Positions 3,929 through 52,060 of a stretch of DNA of 64,000 bases are shown one piece after another. A model generated the notes under the pieces. The model searched no databases and was not told the origin of the DNA. It saw only the letters and a list, made by a program, of their open reading frames with translations. Made by a program: the position numbers and the translations under genes. The stretch's first letter is position 1; the number at the start of each line of letters is the position of its first letter. Origin of the DNA: Squalus acanthias (lineage: Eukaryota); NCBI GenBank assembly GCA_030390025.1, contig CM059432.1:11594001-11658000 (forward strand). Direction: 5' to 3'.

Positions 3929-3967
3929 GCCAGCTCTCAAACCTGAGTGTATATATATGTGTATATA

Positions 3968-4292
3968 TGGCAGCTGTCTTTCATTCTGCCATCGCCATTT
4001 ACACTTCATCTCGAGTCATCTTTTATTTACTTGTCCCATTACCATCTCCTTTTGCCTCGCGCCATCATCCCTTTTGTCATTCAATCTCTCCTGCCTTCTG
4101 TCCTATCACAGACCTTCCCTTTTGTTCTTTCCTCCCCTCCCCCCTTTCCCTGTCCCTACACTTGTTTAAAAACCTGTTCCATCTCCAACTTTTTCCAGTT
4201 CTGACGAAGGGTCACCGACCTGAAACGTTAACTCTCTGTTTCTCTCTCTACAGATGCTGCCTGACCTGCTGAGTATTTCCAGTGTTTTCTGT
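3968..4292 (+). mobile_element. Penelope-like element 3' UTR/pLTR
   Basis: Pyrimidine-rich UTR, hammerhead motif and AGATGCTGCCTGACCTGCTGAGT end, homologous to 5055-5425. Confidence 0.8.
4197..4233 (+). ncRNA. Minimal type I hammerhead ribozyme motif
   Basis: AGTT-CTGACGA-A-GGGTC-ACC-GACCT-GAAA-CGTT-AACT. Confidence 0.75.
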
Positions 4293-4293
4293 T

Positions 4294-4344
4294 GATATAT
4301 ATATATATATATATATTTATGTGTATGTGTTATATATATTTATG

Positions 4345-4412
<68 letters not shown>

Positions 4413-4420
4413 ATGTATAT
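4294..4420. repeat. (TA)n microsatellite
   Basis: Direct reading. Confidence 0.95.
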
Positions 4421-4946
4421 TTAATAAGAAACTTCAATACTCCGTGCCTGTGTGGTGGTCTGCAGAATCGGGGAAGCTAATTTTGCATGAGTGCTTGATT
4501 GTTAGTGACGGATATTATCATGTCCCCTCTGAATTAAAGTGAAAATGAAAGATGGGAGTCGGGAAATGTTTGAACTCTGAAGAACCGCCTCTTCATTTCC
4601 GACTCCCCCCACCTCCACGCCCAAGGACATGGTAAAGCAAAAGTCCATTTTTAAAAATTTATCCTGGCTAGTAAGCAAGTAAGTTGGGTTTTATAAATGT
4701 TCCGATATGCTCAGATCGATGCTGGGTATTTACACCACCACCTTGATGGGGTTTGTGGAACTGGCTGCTGGGTATCGGGTTACCTCGTCCGAACTGCAGG
4801 TGTCGTTTAAAAGCCGTATCACTGCCATCCAGGCAAGTCCCCGCCAAAAAAATATTCTGTGAGTATGACTATGTCAGGCTGCTGCTTGACCAGCCTATGG
4901 GACAGCTCTCCCAACCTTGGCACCAGTCCCCAGATGATAGTGAGGA

Positions 4947-5426
4947 TAATTTCAGATCATAACCCCGCCCCCTATCATATATATATATATATTTTTTTTT
5001 AATTTTATTTTTTTTATCCACACTTTTGTTTGGCCTTTTTTTCTTCCCTCCCACATGGCAGCTGTCCTTCATTCTGCCAGCGCAATTCACACTTCATCTA
5101 GAGCCATCCTTTGTTCCTTAACCTGTCCCATTTCCACCTCCTCTTGCCGTGAATATCTCTTCATGTCTCTTTATCTCTCCTGCTTTCTGTCCTATCACTG
5201 ACCGATCTTCCCTTTTGTTCTTTCATCCCCTCCCCCTCTTTCCCAGCCCTAAACTTGCTTTAAAATTTATTTCATTTCCTGCTATTTCCCAGTTCTGATG
5301 AAAGGTCTTCGACCTGAAACGTTAACTCTGTTTCTCTCTCCACGGATGCTGCCTGGCCTGCTGAGTTTTTCCCAGCGTTTTCTGTTGTTATTTCGGATTT
5401 CCAGCATCCGCAGTATTTTGCTATCG
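4947..5426 (+). mobile_element. 5'-truncated Penelope-like element
   Basis: Starts with the ORF end AATTTCAGATCATAA (NFRS*, as at 15837); 12-bp TSD TGATAGTGAGGA at 4935-4946 and 5427-5438. Confidence 0.88.
5291..5327 (+). ncRNA. Minimal type I hammerhead ribozyme motif
   Basis: AGTT-CTGATGA-A-AGGTC-TTC-GACCT-GAAA-CGTT-AACT. Confidence 0.75.
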
Positions 5427-6000
5427 TGATAGTGAGGAGGACTTTGCAGGGTCGACCTGGGCTGGCTGGGCCTTCGGCGTGTCCTGATTCGATGCCCAGG
5501 TCACAGTCGAGTGGTCCGTCCGGTTCGAATCTTGTTTTCCTTTCTAGCCGTTTAGTGCAACTGAGTGGCTCGCGAGGTCACGTCAGAGGGCAGTTCAGAG
5601 TCAACCACGTTGGCACGGGTCTGGAGTTACATATAGGCCAGACCGAGTAAGGACGAGCAGGTTTCCATCCCCAGTGGACATTAGTGAACCAGTTGTTTTT
5701 TTTTACAACAACCCGACAGCTTCAGCAGTCACTTTTACTGATACCAGCTTTTTATTTCAGGATGTCTTTTAACACTGAATTCAAGTTGTCAAACTGGCCT
5801 GGTGGGATTTGAACTCGTTCTCTGGTTATATTAGTCCAGGGCCATGAATTACTAGTCCAGCAACGTAACCACTAGGCTAGAGCACCGTTCCCATTCCTGA
5901 TCGCTGTCCACTGACTCCTGCTGGAATGCTTGTATGTGTGGACATTAATTGAGGACAGGATTGGGTTTGGTTTTGTTGCTCTTCATTGAAAATATCCTAT

Positions 6001-6395
6001 GAACATAAGAAATCAGAGCAGGAGTTGGCCATTCGGCCCTTCGAGTCTGCTCCGCCATTCAATAAGATCATGGCTGATCTTCTACCTCAACTCCACTTTC
6101 CTGAACTACACCATATCCCTTGATTCCATTAATATCCAAAAATCTATCGATCTCTGTCTTGAATATACTCAACGACTGAGCCTCCACAGCCCTCTGGGGT
6201 AGAGAATTCCAAAGATTCACCACCCTCTGAGTGAAGAAATTTCTCCTCATCTCAGTCCTGAATGGCCGACCCCTTTATTCTGAGACTGTGACTCCTGGTT
6301 CTAGACTCCCCAGCCAGGGGAAACATCCTCCCTGCATCTACCCTGTCAAACCCTGTAAGAATTTTGTATGTTTCAATGAGATCACCTCTCATTCT
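6001..6395 (-). mobile_element. CR1 LINE 3' fragment
   Basis: MRRNFFTQRVVNLWNSLPQRAVEAQSL; CR1 3' UTR and tail. Confidence 0.9.
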
Positions 6396-6682
6396 TTTAA
6401 CCTCTTGAGAACACTCACTATCTGTCTGTCTGGCGCACGCACTCTCGCTCTCCTGAAGATTGGCCACTTGGGCAAGGCACAGGAGTGCTGCCAGTGACCA
6501 TGGAACTGTATCTCAGCGGGAGTCAGCAGTTTCAGCAGGCGACAGCTGGAAAAGGAAGAAAGAATTGGGGAACAAACCATGTTTCAAAAGGTAGTAAGAC
6601 TCGCAGCTGCCAGGGTTTGTTTGACCCTGTATTGAGTGTCTTCTGAGCTAATGAATATTTCTGAGTTTATCTGGCACATTTA

Positions 6683-7455
6683 ACATTCTCATCCTTGTGT
6701 TCAAATCCCTCCCTGCCCTTGTCCCTCCCCATCTCCGTAACCTCCTCCAGCCCTACAACCCCCTGAGATCTCTGCACTCCTCCAATTCTGGCCTCTTGCA
6801 CATTGCCCCACCATTGGCGGCCGTGGCGTCAGCTGTCTATAAGGGGTACGGTAGCATAGTGGTTATGTTACTGGACTAGTAATCCAGAGGCCTGGACTAA
6901 TGATCGAGACGGGAGTTCAAATCCCACCACGGCAGCTGGGGAATTTAAATTCAGTTAATTGAATAAATCTGGAATAAAAAGCTAGGATCAGTAATGGTGA
7001 CCATGAAACTACCAGATTGTCGTAAAAACTCTTCTGGTTCACTAATGTCCTTTAGGGAAGGAAATCTGCCACCCTTACCCGGTCTGGCCTATATGTGACT
7101 CCAGACCCACAGCAATGTGGTTGACTCTTAACTGCCCTCTGAAATGGCCCAGCAAGCCACTCAGTTGTATTCAAGAAGGCGGCTCACCACCACCTTCTCG
7201 AGGGCAATTAGGGATGGGCAATAAATGCTGGCCTTGCCAGCGAGGTCCACATCCCGTGAATGAATTAAAAAAAAACCTAAGCTTGGGAATTCTCTCCCTA
7301 AACCTCTCAACCTCTCCTCCTTTAAGATGCTGCTTAAAACCTACCCCTTTGACCAAGCTTTTGGTCACCTGTCCCAACATCTCTTTATGTGGCTCGGTGT
7401 CAAACTTTGTCTGATAATCGCTCCTGTGAAGCGCCTTGGGACGTTTTACTACTAC
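6683..7455 (+). mobile_element. L2 LINE 3' end, interrupted by the SINE at 6845-7275
   Basis: ILILVFKSL..L.NLLQPYNP.RSL.SS, then WNSLP-like..LKTY.FDQAF and a TGTGAAGCGCCTTGGGACGTTTTACTAC tail. Confidence 0.75.
6845..7275 (+). mobile_element. Complete tRNA-derived SINE (MetaSINE-like body) sharing both ends with the family-B LINE
   Basis: A box TAGCATAGTGG 6852-6862 and B box GTTCAAATCC 6915-6924; body GTCCTTTAGGGAAGGAAATCTGCC..GTGACTCCAGACCCACAGCAATGTGG; tail AAGAAGGCGGCTCACCACCACCTTCTC..GGCAATAAATGCTGGCC matches the LINE end at 11960-12060. Confidence 0.88.
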
Positions 7456-11227: not shown

Positions 11228-12061
11228 TGGACGACGTTCAGGCTTGGGCTGATAAGTAGCAGATAACATTTGCGCCGCAGAAGTGCCAGGCAATGACTAT
11301 CTCCAACAAGCGAGAGTCTAACCACCTCCCCTTGACATTCAACGGCGTTACCATCGCCAAATCCCCCACCATGCGGGGACTGCTGCATCCTGGGGGGTCA
11401 CCATTAACCACAAACTTAACTGGACCAGCCACATAAATACCGTGGCAACAAGAGCAGGTCAGAGGCTGGGTATTCTGCGGCGAGTGTCTCACCTCCTGAC
11501 TCCCCAAAGCCTTTCCACCATCTACAAGGCACAAGTCAGGAGTGTGATGGAATATTCTCCACTTGCCTGGATGAGTGCAGCTCCAACAACACTCAAGAAG
11601 CTCGACACCATCCAGGACAAAGCAGCCCATTTGATTGGCACCCCATCCACCACCTTAAACATTTACTCCCTCCACCACCGGCGTACCGTGGCTGCAGTGT
11701 GTACCATCTACAAGATGCACTGCAGCAACTCGCCAAGGCTTCTTCGGCAGCACCTCCGAACCCCACGACCTCTTCCACCTAGAAGGACAAGGGCAGCAGG
11801 TGCATGGGAACACCACCACCTCCAAGTTCCCCTCCAAGTCACACACCATCCTGACTTAGAAGTATATCGTCGATCCTTCATTGTCACTGGGTCAAAATCC
11901 TGAACTCCCTCCCTAACAGCACTGTGGGAGTACCTTCACCACACGGACTGCAGCGGTTTAAGAAGGCGGCTCACCACCACCTTCTCAAGGACAATTAGGG
12001 ATGGGCAATAAATGCTGGCCTTGCCAGTGACGCCCACATCCCATAAACGAATTTAAAAAAA
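11228..12061 (+). mobile_element. Family-B LINE 3' fragment with complete 3' end
   Basis: LSTIYKAQVRSVMEYSPLAWMSAAPTTLKKLDTIQDKAA; ends FKKAAHHHLLK, short UTR and A-rich tail. Confidence 0.9.
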
Positions 12062-15115: not shown

Positions 15116-15529
15116 AAATGGCAGTAACCCATCGGAATGGCGGTCTCTGCTGTTTTCCACTGGGCTCTGCCGATCTCGCAGTGGGAGTCCCCGTGGAACC
15201 GCCAGTAAATTCAGAGCCATTGTGCCCAGTTGCATCTTGCTTACAAACTTTGTACTTTGTAGTGTTAATAATAAAAAATGAGAAATACGAAATCCACTTT
15301 GAAACATTCCTCTCGCCCAGCCTGACATGGTGATGGTTTTGGATCTTCTATAGAGGGAGCTTGGCTGAAAACGTCTGCAACACTGCCCAGCGGAAAAAAA
15401 CAAACTCTGCCGCTTTTATATTTAACCTGTACAAGTAAAATCTCCGTCTAACCTTTTAACCGGTTGCCTGAATTCAGAACCTCTTTGTCCTGGGGAGAAT
15501 CTGTCTCACAACGAGCTGAAACTGTTATG

Positions 15530-16270
15530 ACAGCAAAATGCTGCGGATGCTTGAAATCTGAAATAACAACAGAAAATGCTGGCAGCACTCAGCAGGCCAG
15601 GCAGCATCCTCGGAGAGAGAAACAGAGTTAACGTTTCAGGTCTGTGACCCTTCATCAGAACTGGAAAAGGTTAGAGATTTTAAGCAGGTGCAGAGACAGG
15701 GAAAGCAGGGGGTGGGGCGGAGGGGAGGAAGGAATTGAAGGAATAGTCTGTGCTAGGGTAGGAGGCAGGCGTGGTTAAATGTTGCAAATGGGGATGGCAG
15801 AGTCATCAACAGTCGCCTGAAAAATGGGGGCAGTGGTTATGATCTGAAATTGTTGAACTCAATGTTGAGTCCAGAAGGCTGTAAAATGCCTAATCGAAAG
15901 ATGAGGCGCTGTTCCTCGAGCTTACGCTGAGCTTCATTGGAACAGTGTAAGAGGCCGAGGACAGAAAGGTCGGAGTGGGAGTGGAGCGGAGAATTAAAGT
16001 GACAGGCGACCGGAAGCTTGGGGTCACCCTTGCGGACTGAACGGGGGTGTTCCGCAAAGCGGTCACCCAATCTGCGTTTGGTCTCCCCAATGTAGAGGAG
16101 ACCGCATCATGAGCAGCGAATACAGTATACTAAATTGCAAGAAGTACAAGTAAATCGCTGTTTCACCTGGAAGGGGTGTTTGGGGCCCTGGACAGTGGGA
16201 AGAGGGGAGGTAAAAGGGCAGGTGTTGCATCTCCTGCGCTTGCACGGGAAGGTGCCGTGGGAAGGGGAAG
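15530..16270 (-). mobile_element. Penelope-like element 3' part encoding a GIY-YIG endonuclease (decayed)
   Basis: NLVYCIRCS*CGLLYIGETKRRLGDRFAEH..PVACHFNSPLHS..LEEQRLIFRLG.LQPSGLN, followed by the UTR and hammerhead motif. Confidence 0.92.
15626..15662 (-). ncRNA. Minimal type I hammerhead ribozyme motif
   Basis: AGTT-CTGATGA-A-GGGTC-ACA-GACCT-GAAA-CGTT-AACT. Confidence 0.75.
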
Positions 16271-17961: not shown

Positions 17962-18495
17962 GATTTTATTCGTTTTATGGGATGTGGGCATCACTGGCAA
18001 GGCCAGCATTTATTGCCCATCCCTAATTGCCCTTGAGAAGGTGGTGGTGAGCCGCCTTCTTGAACCGCTGCAGTCCGTGTGGTGAAGGTGCTCCCACAGT
18101 GCTGTTAGGGAGGGAGTTCCAGGATTTTGACCCAGCGACGATGAAGGATCGGTGATATACTTCCAAGTCAGGATGGTGTGTGACTTGGATGGGAACTTGG
18201 AGGTGGCGGTGTTCCCATGTGCCTGCTGCCCTTGTCCTTCTAGGTGGAAGAGGTCGCGGGTTTGGGAGGTGCTGCCGAAGAAGCCTTGGCGAGTTGCTGC
18301 AGTGCATCTTGTAGATGGTACACACTGCAGCCACGGTATGCCGGTGGTGGAGGGAGTGAATGTTTAAGGTGGTGGATGGGGTGCCAATCAAGCGGGCTGC
18401 TTTGACCTGGATGGTGTCGAGCTTCTTGAGTGTTGTTAGAGCTGCACTCACCCAGGCAAGTGGAGAGTATTCCATCACACTCCTTACTTGTACCT
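17962..18495 (-). mobile_element. Family-B LINE 3' fragment
   Basis: ORF 18023-18478 MEYSPLAW..SWNSLPNS..FKKAAHHHLLKGN*, plus 3' UTR. Confidence 0.9.
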
Positions 18496-19210
18496 GGGAG
18501 AAGCACTACATTACGTTCATACAGCATGCACTGGCACGGTGGTAAGAAGGAGTATACGTGTGCGACACACATGGATTGCCAATGAAATTCTGTTCACACT
18601 AAAGCTGGGCGTGTAGACATTGTTTTTGGAATGGCCTGGAAGCTGCTTCACGGGGCTACATAAATGGGAGCTTTTGTGAGCTTTGCGCACAGAGAAAGTA
18701 AGGCTCTGTTTGTAAGGCAAAGTTGTGCATCAGGAAGCACAAAGCCACCATCCTTGAGATGCTAGCTGGCTTGTGTTGCAGGATGTCCCCCCCCGGGGGC
18801 CAGGTATGATCCAGATACCTGCAACATGCCAATGACGTGATCGCATATAACTCTGGTGACTACAGAGATTTCATTTAAAAACATAACATAAGAAATAGGA
18901 GCAGGAGTAGGCCATTCGGCCCCTCGAGCCTGCTCCGCCATTCAATGAGATCATGGCTGATCTTCGACCTCAACCCCGCTTTCCCGCCCGATCTCCATAT
19001 CAGGACATCCCAAAGCGCTTTACAGCCAATTAAGTACTTTTTGAAGAGTAGTCACTGTTGTAATGTAGGAAATGCAGCAGCCAATTTGCGCACAGCAAGG
19101 CCCCACAAACAGCAATGAGATAAATGACCAGATAATCTGTTTTTTTAGTGATGTAGGTTGAGGGGTAAATATTGGCCAGGACATGTTTATAAAAGAGCAG
19201 ATTTGCTAGT

Positions 19211-24695: not shown

Positions 24696-25156
24696 AGAAC
24701 AGCAGAGCTCATGTGCAGCAACATTAAACAGCCCTGTCGTTACAATGCTGAATGCTCGCAAGCTTAGAAATGAGCTTCACATATTTTGAGTTTCGTCAAT
24801 GAACAAAAATATTATTAAAGCATTATCAGAAATCAGCTGTATGCAGCATGACTCACCACTGAAATAATCAGTTTAATGCTGGAGGAAGCATTTCTTCAAA
24901 GCCAATCGGATTCAGTCACGCAGCCGCGTGTTTCTAAAGACATAGCCACCCACTCCAGAGATGAAAGTGTTGTTGTCAGCTGCACGTAACAGGAGCCAGA
25001 CTTCAGTGAGTGAGTCATTGACGCTGAATTATTGGACCATTGGAATTCTGATCGAACACAGAATTCAAAGATAGACGACCCCAAATGAAGAGGAAGTGAG
25101 ACGCAGATTATGCTTAAAAATAAAAGAAAATGGGTGATTTTTTTTTGTGCGTTCAG

Positions 25157-25563
25157 GTACGGTACCATAGTGGTTATGTCACTGGGCTCGTAATCCAGAG
25201 GCCTGGACTAATGATCCAGAGACGTGAGTTCAAATCCCACCACAGCAGCTGCTGGGGGAATTTAAATTTAGTTAATTAAATAAATCTGGAATTTAAAGCT
25301 AGTATCAGTAACGTTAACCATGAAACTACCAGATTGTCATTAAAAACCTATTGTCCTATGAGGAGAGATGGCCTAATATGTGACTCCAGACCCACAGCAA
25401 TGTGGTTGACTCTTAAACTGCCCCTCTGAAACGGCCCAAGCAAGCCACTCAGTTGTACAAGAAGGCAGCTCACCACCATCTTCTCGAGGGCAATTAGGGA
25501 TGGGCAATAAATGCTGTCCTTGCCAGCGACGCCCACATCCCAAGAACGAATAAAAAAAAAAAT
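25157..25563 (+). mobile_element. tRNA-derived SINE of the family-B type (copy 2)
   Basis: Same head, body and tail as 6845-7275; junction CTCAGTTGTA|CAAGAAGGCAGCTCACC. Confidence 0.88.
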
Positions 25564-32389: not shown

Positions 32390-33541
32390 CAAGGGGTGTC
32401 TTGCAGCTGAAGATGGTTGGGCCTAGGACGCTGCCCTGAGGAACTCTTGCAGCGATGTCCTGGGGCTGATTCCAGGTATGACTTCAGCCACTGGAGAGTT
32501 TCCCCCCCCGATTCCCATTGACTTCTGTTTTACTAGGGCTCCTTGGTGCCACACTCGGTCAAATGCTGCCTTGATGTCAAGGGCAGTCACTCTCACCTCA
32601 CCTCTGGAATTCAGCTCTTTTGTCCATGTTTGGACCAAGGCTGTAATGAGGTCTGGAGCCGAGTGGTCCTGGTGGACCCCAAACTGAGCATCGGTGAACA
32701 GGTTATTGGTGAGTAAGTGCCGCTTGATAGCACTGTCGATGACACCTTCCATCACTTTGCTGATGATTGAGAGTAGGCTTATATGACGGTAATTGGCCGG
32801 ATTGGATTTGTCCTGCTTTTTGTGGACAGGACATACCTGGGTGATTTTCCATATTATCGGGTAGATGCCAGTGTGGTACCTGTGCTGGAACAGCTTGGCT
32901 AGAGGTGCGGCTAGTTCTGGAGCACAAGTCTTCAGCACGACAGCCGGGATGTTGTCGGGACCCACAGCCTTTGCTGTATCCAGTGCGCTCAGCCATTTCT
33001 TGATATCAAGTGGAGAGAATCGAATTGGCTGGAGACTGTCTTCTGTGATGTTGGAGACCTCAGGAGGAGGCCAAGAAGGATCATCCACTCGGCCCTTCTG
33101 GCTGAAGGTATTGCTGGGCTCCACCATCATTGAGGAGGGGAATGTTAATGGAACCTCCTCCATCCGTTAGTTGTTTAATTGTCCACCACTATTTACAATT
33201 GGATGTGGCAGGATTGCGGAGCTTTGACCTGATTGCTTTGCTCTGTCTCTAGAATGCTGCTTCCGCTGTTTAGCATGCATGTAGTCCTGTGTTCTGGCTT
33301 CACCAGTTTGGCACCTGATTTTTAGGTACGCCTGGTGCTGCTCCTGGCATGCTCTTCTACACCCCTCACTGAACCAGGGTTGGCCATCTGGCTTGATGGT
33401 GATAGGGGAGTGAGGGATATGCCGGGCCATGAGGTTACAGATTGTGGTGGAATACAATTCTGCTGCTGCTGATGGTCCACAGCGCCTCGTGGATACCCAG
33501 TTTTGAGCTGCTAGATCTGTTCTAAATCTATCCCATTTAGC
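32390..33541 (-). mobile_element. Family-B LINE internal (linker + RT) fragment
   Basis: ORF 32423-33163: LKTCAPELAAPLAKLF..ANYRHISLLSIISKVMEG..ALDIKAAFDRVWHQG. Confidence 0.92.
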
Positions 33542-35864: not shown

Positions 35865-35975
35865 CTAAAATAAAAGCAGAAAACGCTCAGCAGGTCAGGC
35901 AGCATCTGTGGAGAGAGAAACAAGAGTTGACGTTTTAGTTCGATGACCTTTCATCGGAACTGGAAGATGTTAGAG
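35865..35975 (-). mobile_element. PLE end with a degenerate hammerhead motif (35925-35961)
   Basis: AGTT-CCGATGA-A-AGGTC-ATC-GAACT-AAAA-CGTC-AACT; core mutated. Confidence 0.7.
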
Positions 35976-44478: not shown

Positions 44479-44942
44479 ATTGGAGGCAGGAAGTCGTGCG
44501 AGGAAACCTCCAGGAGTACGTCCAACCAGAGTTGGCAACCGTAGAGTTCCATAGTTTTAAGGTCCTAAGAAAAGTGCATTAGAGTAGGAGACAGAGGGGG
44601 TACATAGTGACTTTCGAGAGTGAGATAAGTAGGTGCTTGTTGTTAAGGAGCTGTCTTTTCTAAAAAAAAACACAAACCAACCAGAAAACCAATCACGCAT
44701 AATGGAGAAGCTATTCCACCCAGATCAGGCTGATTACCTGAATGGAATTCTGAGGAGGCATGTACTTTCATGAGGGAAAATGATGTAATTGTCTCAAGGC
44801 GATTTACTGAGAATTTTCAGCTTAATGGTCTGATCTAAAAGGTGTGGTCGATAGACTAAGCAAAACATTCCATCACTGTGGATTACTTCATTCTGGCATC
44901 AACCGCTTGTGACTGTAACAGTTCTGAAGAATGATTGTGTCA

Positions 44943-47848
44943 CATCCCTAATTGCCCCTTGAGAAGGTGGTGGTGAGCCGCCGCCTTGAACCGCTGCAGT
45001 CGTGTGGTGAAGGTACTCCCACAGCGCTGTTAGGGAGGGAGTTCCAGGAATTTGACCCAGCGGCGATGAAGGATCGGCCGATATACTTCTAAGTCAGGAT
45101 GGTGCGTGTCTTGGAGGGGTTCTTGGAGGTGGTGGTGTTCCCATGCGCCGGCTGCCCTTGTCCTTCTAGGTGGAAGAGGTCGCGGGTTTGGGAGGTGCTG
45201 CTGAAGAAGCCTTGGCTGCACCTTGTAGATGGTACACACTGCAGCCACAGTATGCCGGTGGTGGAGGGAGTCATAGAATCATAGAAGATAGGAGCAGAGT
45301 AGGCCATTCGGCCCCTCTAGCCTGCTCCGCCATTCAATGCGATCATGGCTGATCATCCAAATTCAGTACCCTGTCCCTGCTTTCTCCCCATATCCCTTGA
45401 TCCCTTTAGCCTTAAGAAATATATCCAACTCCTTCTTGAATCTATTTAATTAATTGAATGTTTAAGGTGGTGGATGGGGTGCCAGTCAAGCGGGCTGCTT
45501 TGTCCTGGATGGTGTCAAGCTTCTTGAGTGTTGTTGGAGCTGCACTCATCCAGGCAAGTGGAGAGTATTCCATCACACTCCTTACTTGTGCCTTGTAGAT
45601 GGTGGAAAGGCTTTGGGGAGTCAGGAGGTGAGACACTCGCAGCAGAATACCTTGCCTCTGACCTGCTCTTGTTGCCGCAGTATTTATGTGGCTGGTCCAG
45701 TTAAGTTTCTGGTTAATGGTGACCCCCAGGATGTTGATAGTGGGGGATTCGGCGATGGTAATGCCATTGAATGTCAAGGGGAGGTGGTTAGACTCTCGCT
45801 TGTTGGAGATAGTCATTGCCTGGCACTTCTGTGGCGCGAATGTTACCTGCCACTTATCAGCCCAAGCCTGAATGTCGTCCAGGTCTTGTTGCATGCGGGC
45901 ATGGACTGCTTCATTATCTGTGGAGTTGCGAATGGCGCTGAACACTGTGCAGTCATCAGCGAACATCCCCATTTCTGACCTTATGTTAGAGGGAAGTTCA
46001 TTGATGAAGCAGCTGAAGATGGTTGGGCCTAGGTCACTGCCTTGAGGAACTCCTGCAACGATGTCCTGGGGCTGTGATGATTGACCTTCAACCACCAACC
46101 ATCTCCTTTGTGCTCGGTATGACTCCAGCCAGTGGAGTGTTTTCCCCCTGATTCCCATTGACTTAAGTTTTACGAGGACTCCTTGATGCCAGACTCGGTC
46201 AAATGCTGCCTTGATGTCAAGGGCAGTCACTCTCACCTCACCTCTGGAATTCAGCTCCTTTGTCCATGTTTGGACCAAGGCTGTAATGAGGTCGGGAGAC
46301 CGAGTGGTCTTGTCGGAACCCAAACTGGGCATCAGTGAGCAGGTGCCGCTTGATAGCACTGTCGATGACACCTTCCGTCACTTTGCTGATGATTGAGAGT
46401 AGACTGATGGGGCGGTAATTGGCTGGGTTGGATTTGTCCTGCTTTTTATGGACAGGACATACCTGGGCAGTTTTCCACATTGTCGGATAGATGCCAGTGT
46501 TGTAGCTGTACTGGAACAGCTTGGCTAGAGGCGCGGCTAGTTCTGGAGCACAAGTCTTCAGCACGATAGCCGGGATGTTGTCGGGGCTCATAGCCTTTGC
46601 TGTATCCAGTGCGCTCAGCCGTTTCTTGATATCACGTGGAGTGAATCGAATTGGCTGAAGAATGGCTTCTGTGATGGTGGGGACCTCGGGAGTAGGCCGA
46701 TATGGATCATCCACTCAGCACTTCTGGCTGAGATTGGTTGCAAACACTTCAGCCTTGTCTTTTGCACTCACGTGCTGGGCTCCACCATCATTGAGGATGG
46801 GGATATTCTTGAAGCCTCCTCCTCCCGTTGGATGTTTAATAGTCCACCACCATTCACAACTGGATGTGGCAGGACTGCAGAGCTTTGATCTGATCTGTTG
46901 ATTGTGGGATCGCTTAGCCCTGTCTATAGCATGCTGCTTCCGCTTTTTAGCATGCATGTAGTCCTGTGTTGCAGCTTCCCCAGGTTGGCACCTTATTTTT
47001 AGGTACGCCTGGTGCTGCTCCTGGCATGCTCTTCTACACTCGTTGTTGAACCAGGGTTGGTCGTAATGGTAGAGTGAGGGATATGCCGGGCCATGAGGTT
47101 ACAGATTGTGGTGGAATACAATTCTGCTGCTGATGACCCACAGCGCCTCATGGATGCCCAGTTTTGAGCTGCTAGATCTGTTCTGAATCTATCCCATTTA
47201 GCACGGTGGTAGTGCCACACAACACGATAGAGGGTGTTCTCAGTGTGAAGACGGGACTTCGTCTCTGCAATGACTGTGGGTGGTCACTGCTACCATGCAC
47301 AGGTAGATTGGTCAGGACGAGGTCAAGTAGGTTTTTCCCTCTTGTTGGTTCTCTCACCACCTGTCGCAGGCCCAGACTGGCAGTTATGTCCTTCAGGACT
47401 CGGCCAGCTCGTGATGCTACCGAGCTGCTCTTGGTGATGGACATTGACGTCCTCTACCCAGAGTACATTCTGTGCCCTTGCTACTCTCGGTGCTTCTTCC
47501 AAGTGGTGTTCAACATGGAGGAGCACTGATTCATCAGCTGAGGGAGGGCGGGAGGTGGTAATCAGCAGGCGGTTTCCTTGCCCATGCTTGACCTGAAGCC
47601 ATGAGACTTCATGGGGTCCAGAGTCAATGTTGAGGACTCCCAGGGCCACTCCTTCCCGACTGTATACCACTGTGCCACCACCCTGGTGGGTCTGTCTTGC
47701 CGGTGGGACTAGCTTTTTATTCCAGATTTATTTAATTAACTGAATTTAAATTCCCAAGCTGCCGTGGTGGGATTTGAACTCACGCCTCTGGATCATTAGT
47801 CCAGGTCTCTGGATTACTAGCCCAGTGACATTACCACTACGCTACCGT
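44943..47848 (-). mobile_element. Family-B LINE, near full length: tRNA-derived head (47710-47848) joined to a frameshifted EN-RT ORF; nested CR1 end at ~45271-45452
   Basis: A box TAGCGTAGTGG 47834-47844 and B box GTTCAAATCC 47770-47779; EN motifs SHRQDRPT..VVYSREG..RPPSAD..DVNVHH, NLLDLVLTN, SDH; RT motifs NYRPISLL, LDIKAAFDRV, GVPQGS.LGP, MFADD. Confidence 0.92.
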
Positions 47849-49211: not shown

Positions 49212-52060
49212 TCAACTCCATTCACCGGCCCTATCGCCATATCCCTTGATGCCCTTACTAGTCAGAAATCTATCGACTTCTGTTTTGAATATACCCAATG
49301 ACTGAGCCTCCACAACCCTCTGGGGTAGAGAATTCCAAAGATTCACCACCCTCTGTGTGAAGAAATTTCTTCTCATCTCAGTCCTGAATGGCCTATCCTT
49401 TATCTTGAGGCTGTGGCCCCTGGTTCTAGACTCCCCAGCTATGAGAAACATTCTCCCAGCATCCATCCTATCAAGCCCTGTAATAATTTTGTATGCTTCA
49501 ATGAGATCCCCTCTCATTCTTCTGAATTCAAGAGAATACAGGCCTAGTTTACTCAATCTCTTCTCATACGACAGTCCCGTCATCCCAGGAATCAATCTCG
49601 TGAACCTTCGTTGCACTCCCTCCATGGCAAGTATATCCTTCCTTAGGTAAGGAGACCAAAATTGTACACAGTACTCCAGGTGTGGTCTCACCAAGGCCCT
49701 ATATAATTGGAGTAAGACTTCTTTACTCCTGTACTCAAATCCTCTTGTAATGAAGGCCAGCACACCATTTGCCTTCCTAATGGCTTGCTGCACCTGCACA
49801 TTCACTTTCAGTGACTCATGTATAAGGACACCCAGGTCCCTTTGAGCATCTGCATTCCCCAATCTTTCACCATTTAGGAAATACTCTGCCTTTCTGTTTT
49901 TTCTACCAAAGTGGATAACTTCACATTTATCCACATTATATTCCATCTGCCATGTTCTCGCCCACTCCCTGAGCCTGTCGAGATCCCCTTGAAGCCTCTT
50001 CACATCCTCTTCACAACTAACACTGCCACCTAGCTTTGTATCATCAGCAAATTTGGAAATGTTACATTTAGTCCCCTCATCCAAATCATTGATATAGATT
50101 GTGAATAGCTGGGGCCCAAGCACCGATCCTTGCAGTACCCCACTAGTTACAGCCTGCCATCCTGAAAAAGACCCGTTTATCCCTACTCTTTGTTTTCTGT
50201 CTGTTAACCAATTCTCAATCCATGCTAGTATATTACCCCCAATTCCATGTGCCCTAATTTTGTTCACCAACCTCTTGTGTGGGACCTTATCGAAGGCCTT
50301 CTGAAAATTCAGATACACCACATCTACCAGTTCCCCCTTGTCTACTCCACTAGTTACATCCTCAAAGAACTCCAATAGGATTGTCAAACAGGATTTCCCT
50401 TTCATAAATCCATGTTGACTCTGCCCAATCTTACTATTAGTTTCTAAGTGCCCAGTTATTGCATCCTTTATAATAGATTCCAGCATTTTTCCAACTACTG
50501 ATGTGAGGCTAACAGGTCTGTAGTTCCCTGTTTTCTCTCTCCCTCCTTTCTCAAATAGCGGGGTTACATTTGCTATCCTCCAATCTGCAGGAACCGTTCC
50601 AGAATCTATAGAATTTTGGAAGATAACAACCAATGCGTCCACTATTCCAATGGCCACCTCTTTCAAAACCCTAGGATGTAGGTCATCCGGTCCTTGGGAT
50701 TTATCGACTTTTAGTCCCATTAATTTTGCTAGTACTGTTGTTTTACTAATAATAATTTCTTTAAGTTCCTCATTCTCATCGCACCCTTGGTTTTCTCGTA
50801 TTTCTGGGAGTTTTTTTGTGTCTTCCTCCGTGAAGACAGAAACAAGGTATTTATTTAATTTCTCTGCCATTTTCTCATTCCCCATTATAAATTCTCCCGT
50901 CTCTGACTGTAAAGGACCTACATTTACCTTCGCCAGTCTTTTCCTTTTCACATACCTATAGAAGCTTTTACAATCCGTTTTTATATTTTTCGCTAGATAG
51001 TGCTCATATTCCATTTTCCCTTTCTTTATCAATTTCTTGGTACCCCTTTGCTGATTTCTAAAAAGATCCCAATCCTCAGGCTGACCGCTTTTTCTGGCAA
51101 CTTTATAAGCTTCCTCCTTTGACTTAATACTAGCTTTAATTTCTTTTGTTAGCCATGGTTGGATCACTTTTCCTTTTGGGTTTTTATGCCCTAGAGGAAT
51201 ATATGTTTGTTGCAAATTATGCATTATTTCCTTGAGTGTTAGCCATTGTATGTCCACCTTCATACCTTTTAGTGTAGTCTCCCAATCTACCATGGCCAAC
51301 TTGTCCCTCATACCCTTGTAGTTTCCTCTGTTTAGATTGAAGACCTTAGTTTCAGATTGGACTACATCACTCTCAAACTGAATGTAAAATTCAATCATAT
51401 TATGGTCACTTGTCCCTAAAGGCCCCTTTACCACAAGATTATTGATTAGCCCTTTCTTATTACACAGTACCAGATCCAGAATAGCCTGTTCCCTGGTTGG
51501 TTCCTCCACATACTGATCCAGGAAACCATCTCGCATGCAGTCCAAGAATTCGTCCTCCACACCATTAGTGGTAATTTGATTTGCCCAGTCAATATGTAGA
51601 TTAAAGTCCCCCATGATTACCGTATTGCCCTTGTTACATGCACTTCTAATCTCTTGATTGATACTGTGCCCTACATTACCACTGCTGTTTGGTGGCCTAT
51701 ACACAACTCCCACCAATGTTTTCCGCCCTTTGCTGTTTCTTAGCTCCACCCAAACTGATTTCAGTTCTACATCACGATCTGCCGAGCCAAGATCTTTTAT
51801 CTCTACCATACCGATCTCAACCCTTATTAACAGCGCTACGCCACCTCCTTTTCCTTTTTGTCTGTCCTTCCTAAATGTTGAGTACCCTGGAACATTCAGT
51901 TCCCAGCTTTGGTTACCCTGCAACCATGTCTCTGTAATGGCAATTACATCCTACCCATTTACTTCTATTAGTGCCATTAATTCATGCATCTTGTTGCGAA
52001 TGCTACGTGCATTTAGATAAAGTGCCTTCAACTTTGCCTGTTTAATATTTTTCTGCACTT
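49212..52060 (-). pseudogene. CR1 ORF2 (APE endonuclease + reverse transcriptase); 903-aa open stretch preceded by one in-frame stop
   Basis: LKALYLNARSIRNK..NG*DVIAITETWL (TAG at 51951-51953); MGDFN, SDHN, NYRPVSLTS, VYLNFQKAFD (expected catalytic D reads N), QGSVLGP, FADD. Confidence 0.95.

Follow-up and report, generated by a model that had tools for sequence, protein, structure and literature searches.

The 64,000-nucleotide stretch of the Squalus acanthias genome analysed here (contig CM059432.1, positions 11,594,001 to 11,658,000 of the forward strand; "the window", to whose first letter all coordinates below refer) carries on its minus strand, from 5892 to 4854, a decayed 5' fragment of an abundant family of long interspersed elements (LINEs) of about 3.3 kb. 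The first 325 nucleotides (nt) of this LINE, made up of a head derived from transfer RNA (tRNA) and a body, are held in common with a short interspersed element (SINE) located at 6845-7275 of the same window. On the usual view, SINEs are small genes of RNA polymerase III (Pol III) with a borrowed LINE tail, and LINEs are genes of RNA polymerase II (Pol II) with a promoter of their own. From sequence comparison we consider it probable, at roughly 0.6, that the headed LINE forms an abundant family of which the SINE is a deletion derivative, and that the head serves as the LINE's own promoter, with Pol III as the most likely polymerase.

In the window fragment, hereafter LINE copy 1, the tRNA-derived head occupies 5797-5892 and matches the SINE head; the A box TAGCCTAGTGG (5879-5869) and the B box GTTCAAATCC (5814-5805) were read directly on the minus strand, where a preliminary description of the window had placed both motifs. 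The body follows at 5558-5796 and corresponds to SINE positions of about 96-328. From 5892 to 5558, copy 1 aligned to positions 13-328 of the plus-strand SINE with 77.5% identity over 325 nt (E 1e-62; matching window segment 6852-7167), in agreement with the earlier reading that head and central body are those of the SINE. Beyond the body lies a LINE-specific leader, segment B, which comprises 124 nt at 5557-5434, has no counterpart in the SINE and is itself a repeated family; together with the first codons of the endonuclease frame it fills the interval 5427-5557, up to a nested insertion of another repeat. The insertion had already been recognised in the preliminary description, and it proved to be a real one, of 481 bp (4946-5426), with the 11-bp target duplication CCTCACTATCA on either side (5427-5437 and 4935-4945). 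Once the insert was excised, copy 1 read on into ...CKVLLTIIWGLVPRLGELSHRLVKQQPDIVILTE, the same stretch which in other copies leads into endonuclease and reverse transcriptase; the passage into an endonuclease N-terminus and not a SINE tail, as originally reported, was thus seen both in copy 1 and elsewhere in the family. The endonuclease N-terminus of copy 1 (...LLTIIWGLVPRLGELSHRLVKQQPDIVILTE) lies at 4854-4945 on the minus strand and is 89% identical to positions 48-138 of the element in L073, a nearly open genomic copy. Copy 1 breaks off at 4854, at about LINE position 640, and no continuation was found nearby.

Genomic copies of the family were sought in the 3.7-Gb vertebrate assembly that contains the window, whose repeats and named protein relatives are shark ones. 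A first probe (5434-5620) returned 2247 first-look candidates, and all 40 of the copies scored were matches; at the 29 non-self loci that were fetched, SINE body ending at about position 325 preceded segment B in every case, and the endonuclease N-terminus followed it in 27. This sample was biased, as the probe held 63 nt of body and six loci were copies of one segmental repeat on contig C3. These six near-identical, 5'-truncated LINE fragments (L002-L005, L010 and L021) are located at 63.79-64.68 Mb, spaced 130-310 kb from each other, with four pointing one way and two the other; they look like the outcome of a large segmental or tandem duplication, rather than of independent insertions.

To avoid this bias, copies were also collected by endonuclease only, using 185 residues from a natural copy; there were 96,374 first-look candidates, the best 150 of which were scored, and sequence was retrieved for 30 loci. 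SINE body, 124-nt leader and endonuclease ran on uninterrupted in 24 of the 29 non-query loci, and the remaining five were 5' truncations inside the leader or the endonuclease N-terminus, with mutually unrelated flanks. Eight of the 29 copies extended to SINE position 14 or earlier, the rest ending at varied points in the body, which is usual for LINE copies, and none had another 5' untranslated region (UTR) or an ORF1. With an 80-nt probe across the junction of body and leader, which gave 669 first-look candidates, 40 of 40 scored copies were full-length matches at 95-100% identity on many contigs. The preliminary description had proposed an endonuclease-based collection of this kind as a check on the contiguity of head and endonuclease, and had named a different 5' UTR, an ORF1 and a junction unique to the locus as grounds for giving the idea up; contiguity was found in 24 of 29 copies, the other five being simply 5'-truncated, alternatives in none of 29, and the same junction in 24 of the 24 copies that reach it. 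Together these data support the SINE head and body as the true 5' end of the LINE family and not an accident of the window locus.

LINE and SINE also begin at the same base. Sixteen LINE copies and the two SINE copies of the window start with GG(A/T)ACGGTAGC, and the DNA upstream of this point is unrelated from copy to copy. The A box lies at +8 and the B box at +73; among the 16 LINE copies, the exact A box (at +8) was present in eight and the exact B box (at +67 to +74) in eight. The anticodon arm is duplicated in the tRNA-like head, which is recognisable as tRNA-derived by motif and layout, and weakly so by covariance model. ARAGORN called one of four LINE heads, as tRNA-Thr, and made no tRNA call within the window, the program being too insensitive for heads that have decayed.

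A full-length copy consists of the head with its A and B boxes, a 230-nt body, the 124-nt leader, a single open reading frame (ORF) some 970 codons long and roughly 70 nt of 3' UTR; the 325 nt of head and body and the remaining 2.99 kb or so add up to the unit of about 3.3 kb. In L073, frames of 203 and 789 residues supply endonuclease and reverse transcriptase, together about 970 codons. A Pfam scan of its product detected RVT_1 (132 bits), a sub-threshold Exo_endo_phos on a fragment and no RNase H; proteins about 40% identical to the LINE product carry PF03372, PF14529 and PF00078. The stop codon (...FKAAAHHHLLKGN*) falls within the tail that is common to LINE and SINE and is followed by about 70 nt containing two AATAAA motifs, one about 40 nt before and one directly before the A tail, and by the A-rich end. 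In six of the eight head-complete copies, those matched from SINE position 1-4, the first base is separated from the endonuclease by 504-542 nt, and in the same six copies this interval held no ORF of at least 100 amino acids (aa); so short an interval therefore leaves no room for an ORF1. A single endonuclease/reverse-transcriptase ORF without ORF1, as given in the preliminary description, thus stands. The ORF1 that it took as normal for CR1-group LINEs is absent, and the A-rich tail and missing ORF1 do not fit the CR1 description given there. The layout is that of RTE-type elements, compact and with one ORF, no ORF1 and short UTRs (about 325 nt of non-ORF sequence at the 5' end, about 70 nt of 3' UTR). 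The endonuclease and C-terminal motifs presumably stand nearer to the Jockey/I/CR1-type groups than to RTE, an assumption that we offer as a lead.

Two parts of the preliminary description, that one frame runs from MWLTLNCP into the endonuclease and that the LINE start codon is located inside the SINE body, had to be abandoned. The SINE does have the reported ATG at 7115 (MWLTLNCPLKWPSK...). In the majority states of two subfamilies, old and young, the MWLT frame is at +1 to the endonuclease frame, and copy 1 links the two only through a 1-nt insertion (one extra G). From the border of body and leader onward, the subfamilies differ by 14 synonymous and 6 non-synonymous changes when read in the endonuclease frame, as against 1 and 17 in the MWLT frame, which argues that the endonuclease frame is coding from this border onward (QTA(T/R)KKNKNKTGRTTRHRPRHR...PCKVLLTNIWGL...). 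Before the end of the endonuclease, this frame contains no ATG in either subfamily; upstream it is closed by a TAG in 37 of 58 copies and by a TAA of the young subfamily in 24 of 58. One copy (L029, the same as L043) is open from the body ATG (MAEQATQLYQTATKK...), and a few others have Tyr instead of the TAA. The leader ORF that begins with MWLT is 19-77 codons long, depending on the subfamily, and inspection of the majority-state frames by eye revealed no canonical -1 slippery heptamer in its overlap with the endonuclease frame.

The SINE at 6845-7275 (plus strand) comprises head and body (positions 1-325), a LINE 3' tail (326-431) and an A tail. Judged by its junctions, it unites LINE 1-325 with the ~105 nt that end the LINE, and so is a derivative of the headed LINE produced by internal deletion (template jump). 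Its body and the 5' region of young LINE copies are 90-97% identical, as the relation that Kojima (2018) set out for SINE bodies would have it, and SINE positions 326-431 are 84-92% identical to the last 105 nt of the LINE, which include the last 13 codons, giving the pair a shared 3' tail; in the L073 element, the tail of this SINE matches positions 2808-2914. In natural LINE copies, the 5' junction reads ...CAGTTGTA[TCAA]ACTGCTAG... (GTTGTA[TCAA]ACTGC) and the 3' junction ...GCAGCGGT[TCAA]GAAGGCGGCTCACC... (GCGGT[TCAA]GAAGGCGG), and the SINE reads ...CAGTTGTAT[TCAA]GAAGGCGGCTCACC... (GTTGTAT[TCAA]GAAGGCGG). We reasoned from this comparison that a single deletion or template jump over 4-5 nt of microhomology (TCAA) would convert the one into the other. 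Further internally deleted LINE copies exist, L034 and L038 among them. The L038 locus (C17:60117800-60124800) holds a deleted derivative of about 1.5 kb (the 5' 620 nt plus the last 530 nt), after which comes a second, 5'-truncated LINE copy.

To account for these features, we propose that the head would be the LINE's own internal promoter and would fix the first transcribed base, by which LINE and SINE copies would have kept one 5' end through at least two subfamily turnovers. Pol III, acting through the type-2 A and B boxes, would be the most likely polymerase, because a type-2 promoter is the simplest device that would start LINE and SINE at the same base. The transcript would run through the ORF, which has no shared run of four T, and would be polyadenylated after AAUAAA. 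The endonuclease/reverse-transcriptase frame would then be translated without a conventional AUG, the candidate routes being a non-AUG start codon, or else reinitiation or frameshifting downstream of the short leader ORF that begins with MWLT. Absence of the ORF1 protein would fit the Pol III-made templates reported in the human L1 system, which retrotranspose without ORF1p, whereas Pol II-made Alu requires it, and the missing ORF1 and AUG would likewise fit an uncapped, SINE-like template (PMC2666806).

Between the majority states of the old and young subfamilies, head and body differ by 8.8% and 8.7%, against 16.5% for the leader and 5.3% for the endonuclease N-terminus; alongside the 5' end that LINE and SINE have shared through subfamily turnover, these figures favour use of the head. 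Across the element, no run of at least four T was common to at least half of the copies, as against 14, 12 and 10 such runs of A, C and G; in the same test, a CR1-like control had 6 T runs for 7.35 expected.

Several points tell against a Pol III-driven, autonomous LINE. The absence of shared T runs is neutral as evidence: it is striking against mononucleotide content, from which about 4.4 would be expected, but is not significant against dinucleotide shuffles (1.4-1.5 expected; probability of none 0.22), and synonymous-codon shuffles of one natural ORF likewise give an expectation of no more than 2.0. The Rfam tRNA model scored the SINE head at 21.5 bits and a LINE-borne head at 25.4 bits, both short of the model's gathering score (29). 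RNAs made by Pol III carry no cap, an AATAAA near the 3' end is a normal Pol II signal, and no translated 3.3-kb Pol III transcript is known from nature. None of the sequencing runs listed was recorded as RNA, and the contigs of four runs over the LINE 5' region were unitigs of 100-250 nt, too short to inform on the ends, strand or contiguity of transcripts. Of the 57 best genomic copies, only six (query included) gave a stop-free match to the 789-aa frame, the longest frame reached 874 of about 970 codons, and no fully intact headed copy was seen, so that autonomy is inferred from subfamily majority states. Finally, the head may at its very origin have passed in either direction between SINE and LINE.

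A more far-reaching version of this proposal would make the LINE a protein-coding retrotransposon naturally driven by Pol III: its ancestor would have captured a SINE head as a portable promoter, and the element, having neither ORF1 nor AUG, would shed SINEs by loss of its ORF, LINE and SINE then being two length forms of one element and not host and parasite. We advance it tentatively, expecting that it would fail somewhat more readily than hold.

The strongest competitor retains the same architecture and assigns transcription to Pol II, with head and body as an inherited 5' UTR, perhaps with some Pol II promoter activity, and with A and B boxes that matter for the SINE only. A coding RNA of 3.3 kb is a usual Pol II product, the two AATAAA motifs stand where Pol II would use them, about 40 nt and directly before the A tail, and dinucleotide content can account for the absence of T runs; Kojima (2018) moreover takes LINEs and their bipartite derivatives as Pol II transcripts (PMC5786205). 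To explain the present copies, however, Pol II would need to adopt the exact start nucleotide of Pol III, as LINE copies of old and young subfamilies alike begin at the first base of the SINE. The lack of an AUG in the ORF of either subfamily is awkward for cap-dependent scanning, and the head has diverged about half as much as the adjoining leader. We regard Pol II transcription as possible but rather unlikely.

Much less probable is that the headed LINEs are non-autonomous chimeras copied in trans by an unsampled autonomous master with another 5' UTR and possibly an ORF1. The lack of any fully intact headed copy would suit such a master, as would the fact that the endonuclease collection drew on the best 150 of 96,374 first-look candidates, ranked by likeness to one endonuclease; distant metagenome relatives, too, sometimes have an upstream ORF of 150-344 aa. 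Yet no alternative 5' end appeared among the 29 endonuclease-sampled copies, the architecture is identical in two subfamilies that are 16.5% apart in the leader, the ORF has been under purifying selection between them, and the five closest relatives are likewise single-ORF elements without ORF1.

We also considered that the LINE inserts site-specifically into SINEs at position 325, head, body and tail being the target. SINE sequence does flank the LINE on both sides, with TCAA at both junctions in the manner of a 4-bp target duplication, but the LINE ORF would then lose its last 13 codons and stop, which lie in the "SINE tail", and 5' truncations at many points of the body mark one contiguous unit. 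The truncated copies moreover do not abut SINE position 325: none of eight interior 5'-truncated copies had SINE body upstream, and the five leader-truncated copies had unrelated flanks. This explanation is contradicted and scarcely credible. A one-off event at the window locus, whether a SINE that landed by chance beside a LINE fragment or a lone U6/L1- or tRNA/L1-type chimera made by template switching, has next to no standing, for although such chimeras are known for L1 (bioRxiv 10.1101/2025.02.02.635956) and the second window locus has a different junction, the same junction recurs in all 24 endonuclease-sampled copies long enough to include it and in every one of the 40 junction matches that were scored, and is thus common to copies of the family.

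Identity to the LINE product falls to about 40% in the nearest proteins from outside sharks; proteins 85% and 72% identical to it occur in gene models of two distant sharks, which suggests that the LINE is old in elasmobranchs. Stretches with 85% identity to the LINE reverse transcriptase are embedded in two Heptranchias perlo gene models, P0062 and P0174 (aldo-keto reductase 1B1-like; proteasome assembly chaperone 2 isoform X2), and are likely annotation chimeras or exonised pieces of the LINE. Between 20% and 76% of the 31-letter words sampled from one LINE copy were present in sequencing runs under eight organism labels, from which near-identical copies of the family appear to be common to several species labels. 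The SINE/LINE pair of the window may be the HE1/HER1 pair.

Eighty more remote relatives were found on metagenome contigs. The five closest have a single ORF of 960-986 codons that begins with ATG, no ORF1, and a 3' UTR of 100-230 nt. A tRNA-like head was not detected in these relatives by ARAGORN (0 of 80), by the pattern of A plus B box upstream of the ORF (0) or by Rfam (0 of the 6 closest), the pattern being one that recovers only three of eight positive controls and the contigs ones that may be 5'-truncated. The lack of a head in 80 relatives points to the head as an acquisition; from these sequences, the single ORF looks like a trait of the lineage and the head like a later capture.

In the full texts searched (a scope that leaves out Repbase, Dfam, supplements and the original HE1/HER1 papers), no autonomous LINE with a tRNA-derived head was found. 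Trypanosomes have the pairs Ingi/RIME and L1Tc/NARTc, the shared 5' end of which is not known to be tRNA-derived or to carry A and B boxes. These pairs resemble the present one in that both ends are common to the LINE and its short deletion partner (PMC5786205). More widely, SINEs with 5' and 3' parts of RTE or Vingi LINEs are known, as are the deletion derivatives of Ingi and L1Tc (PMC5786205, PMC7245038). In Bov-B/Bov-A/Bov-tA, in RTE-derived SINEs and in Vingi-2_ACar/SINE2-1_ACar (Okada and Hamada 1997, as cited in PMC5786205), the short form likewise consists of the LINE 5' part and 3' end, generated by internal deletion from a compact single-ORF LINE without ORF1. Unlike here, the tRNA head of the Bov-B and Vingi systems is found on the SINE only and is presented there as an addition to a deletion derivative that had none; their LINE begins with an ordinary 5' UTR and is presumed to be transcribed by Pol II (PMC5786205). 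The arrangement of Kojima (2018), with a head on the SINE only and a headless LINE, does not apply to the present family, whose LINE copies start at the first base of the SINE.

A further system is the HE1 V-SINE and HER1 LINE of sharks and rays, in which a LINE and a tRNA-derived elasmobranch SINE of about 400 bp have the 3' tail in common (PMC3747384); HE1 is given as a 402-bp tRNA-derived SINE (PMC2911107). The likeness lies in a table entry and in the reported size of HE1, and the passages on HE1/HER1 in these sources mention no shared 5' end. U6/L1 and tRNA/L1 chimeras resemble the headed LINE in that a small Pol III RNA is joined 5' of a LINE, and differ from it in being single insertions that have founded no family and whose tRNA parts are mostly antisense halves (bioRxiv 10.1101/2025.02.02.635956), whereas the headed LINE has one sense junction in hundreds of copies or more. 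A template switch of this kind is a likely way in which the head was originally acquired. The T+ SINEs of mammals, B2, Dip and Ves, whose Pol III transcripts are polyadenylated, offer a parallel in that AATAAA and an A-rich tail go together with a Pol III promoter inside the element (PMC8466645); they are short and non-coding and have a TCTTT-type terminator, whereas the headed LINE is 3.3 kb long and coding, with no terminator motif noted.

The origin of SINE bodies is regarded as an open question (PMC5786205, PMC6887750). In the present pair, the whole 5' third of the SINE, including its Pol III head, is also the 5' end of its LINE, from which the SINE can be derived in one deletion step. 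If the head does drive the LINE, the family would provide an example of a long translated Pol III transcript, as well as a natural test of whether the polymerase decides the need for ORF1 (PMC2666806). If Pol II is used instead, a SINE module would still have been taken up by an autonomous element and kept through subfamily turnover, and the way in which SINE/LINE pairs and conserved SINE bodies are searched for in repeat libraries would change.

The window contains several further members of the family. A second full-length SINE copy is located at 25156-25561 (plus strand) and is 82.4% identical over 442 nt to the SINE at 6840-7290. LINE copy 2 lies on the minus strand; its head at 47709-47852 matches SINE positions 5-146 with 91.7% identity and contains an A box (TAGCGTAGTGG) and a B box (GTTCAAATC), and joined directly to it at 44940-47708 are the endonuclease from about 190 nt in, the reverse transcriptase and the 3' tail. 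Copy 2 is 92.2% identical to positions 194-2515 and 88.1% identical to positions 2515-2857 of the L073 element, and RVT_1 was detected in its frames. We read copy 2 as a full-length LINE with an internal deletion of about 445 nt, by which the head (to position 146) became fused about 190 nt into the endonuclease. The preliminary description had cited this locus (47710-47848) as an independent instance of the same head on the same ORF; family and head are indeed the same, and the junction is unlike that of copy 1.

Two 5'-truncated copies of the headed LINE, at 11228-12061 (plus strand; last 830 nt) and 17964-18501 (minus strand; last 540 nt), and an internal fragment at 32403-33541 (minus strand; element positions 735-1961) are all without SINE body upstream. 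Sequence of the SINE tail (326-431) alone was found at the ends of the copies at 11228-12061 and 17964-18501 and of copy 2 (44940).

A different, CR1-like LINE is present at 49212-51950 on the minus strand as an open frame of 912 residues with RVT_1 (106 bits), Exo_endo_phos_2 and Exo_endo_phos, and looks near-intact; between the SINE and LINE copy 1, at about 6040-6400 (minus strand), there is a 3' fragment of this kind of LINE. The repeat nested in copy 1, a putative Penelope-like element according to the preliminary description, has relatives within the window at 3967-4298, 15521-15668 and 35868-35963, and a long (TA)n microsatellite at 4300-4420 adjoins the second copy of this repeat.

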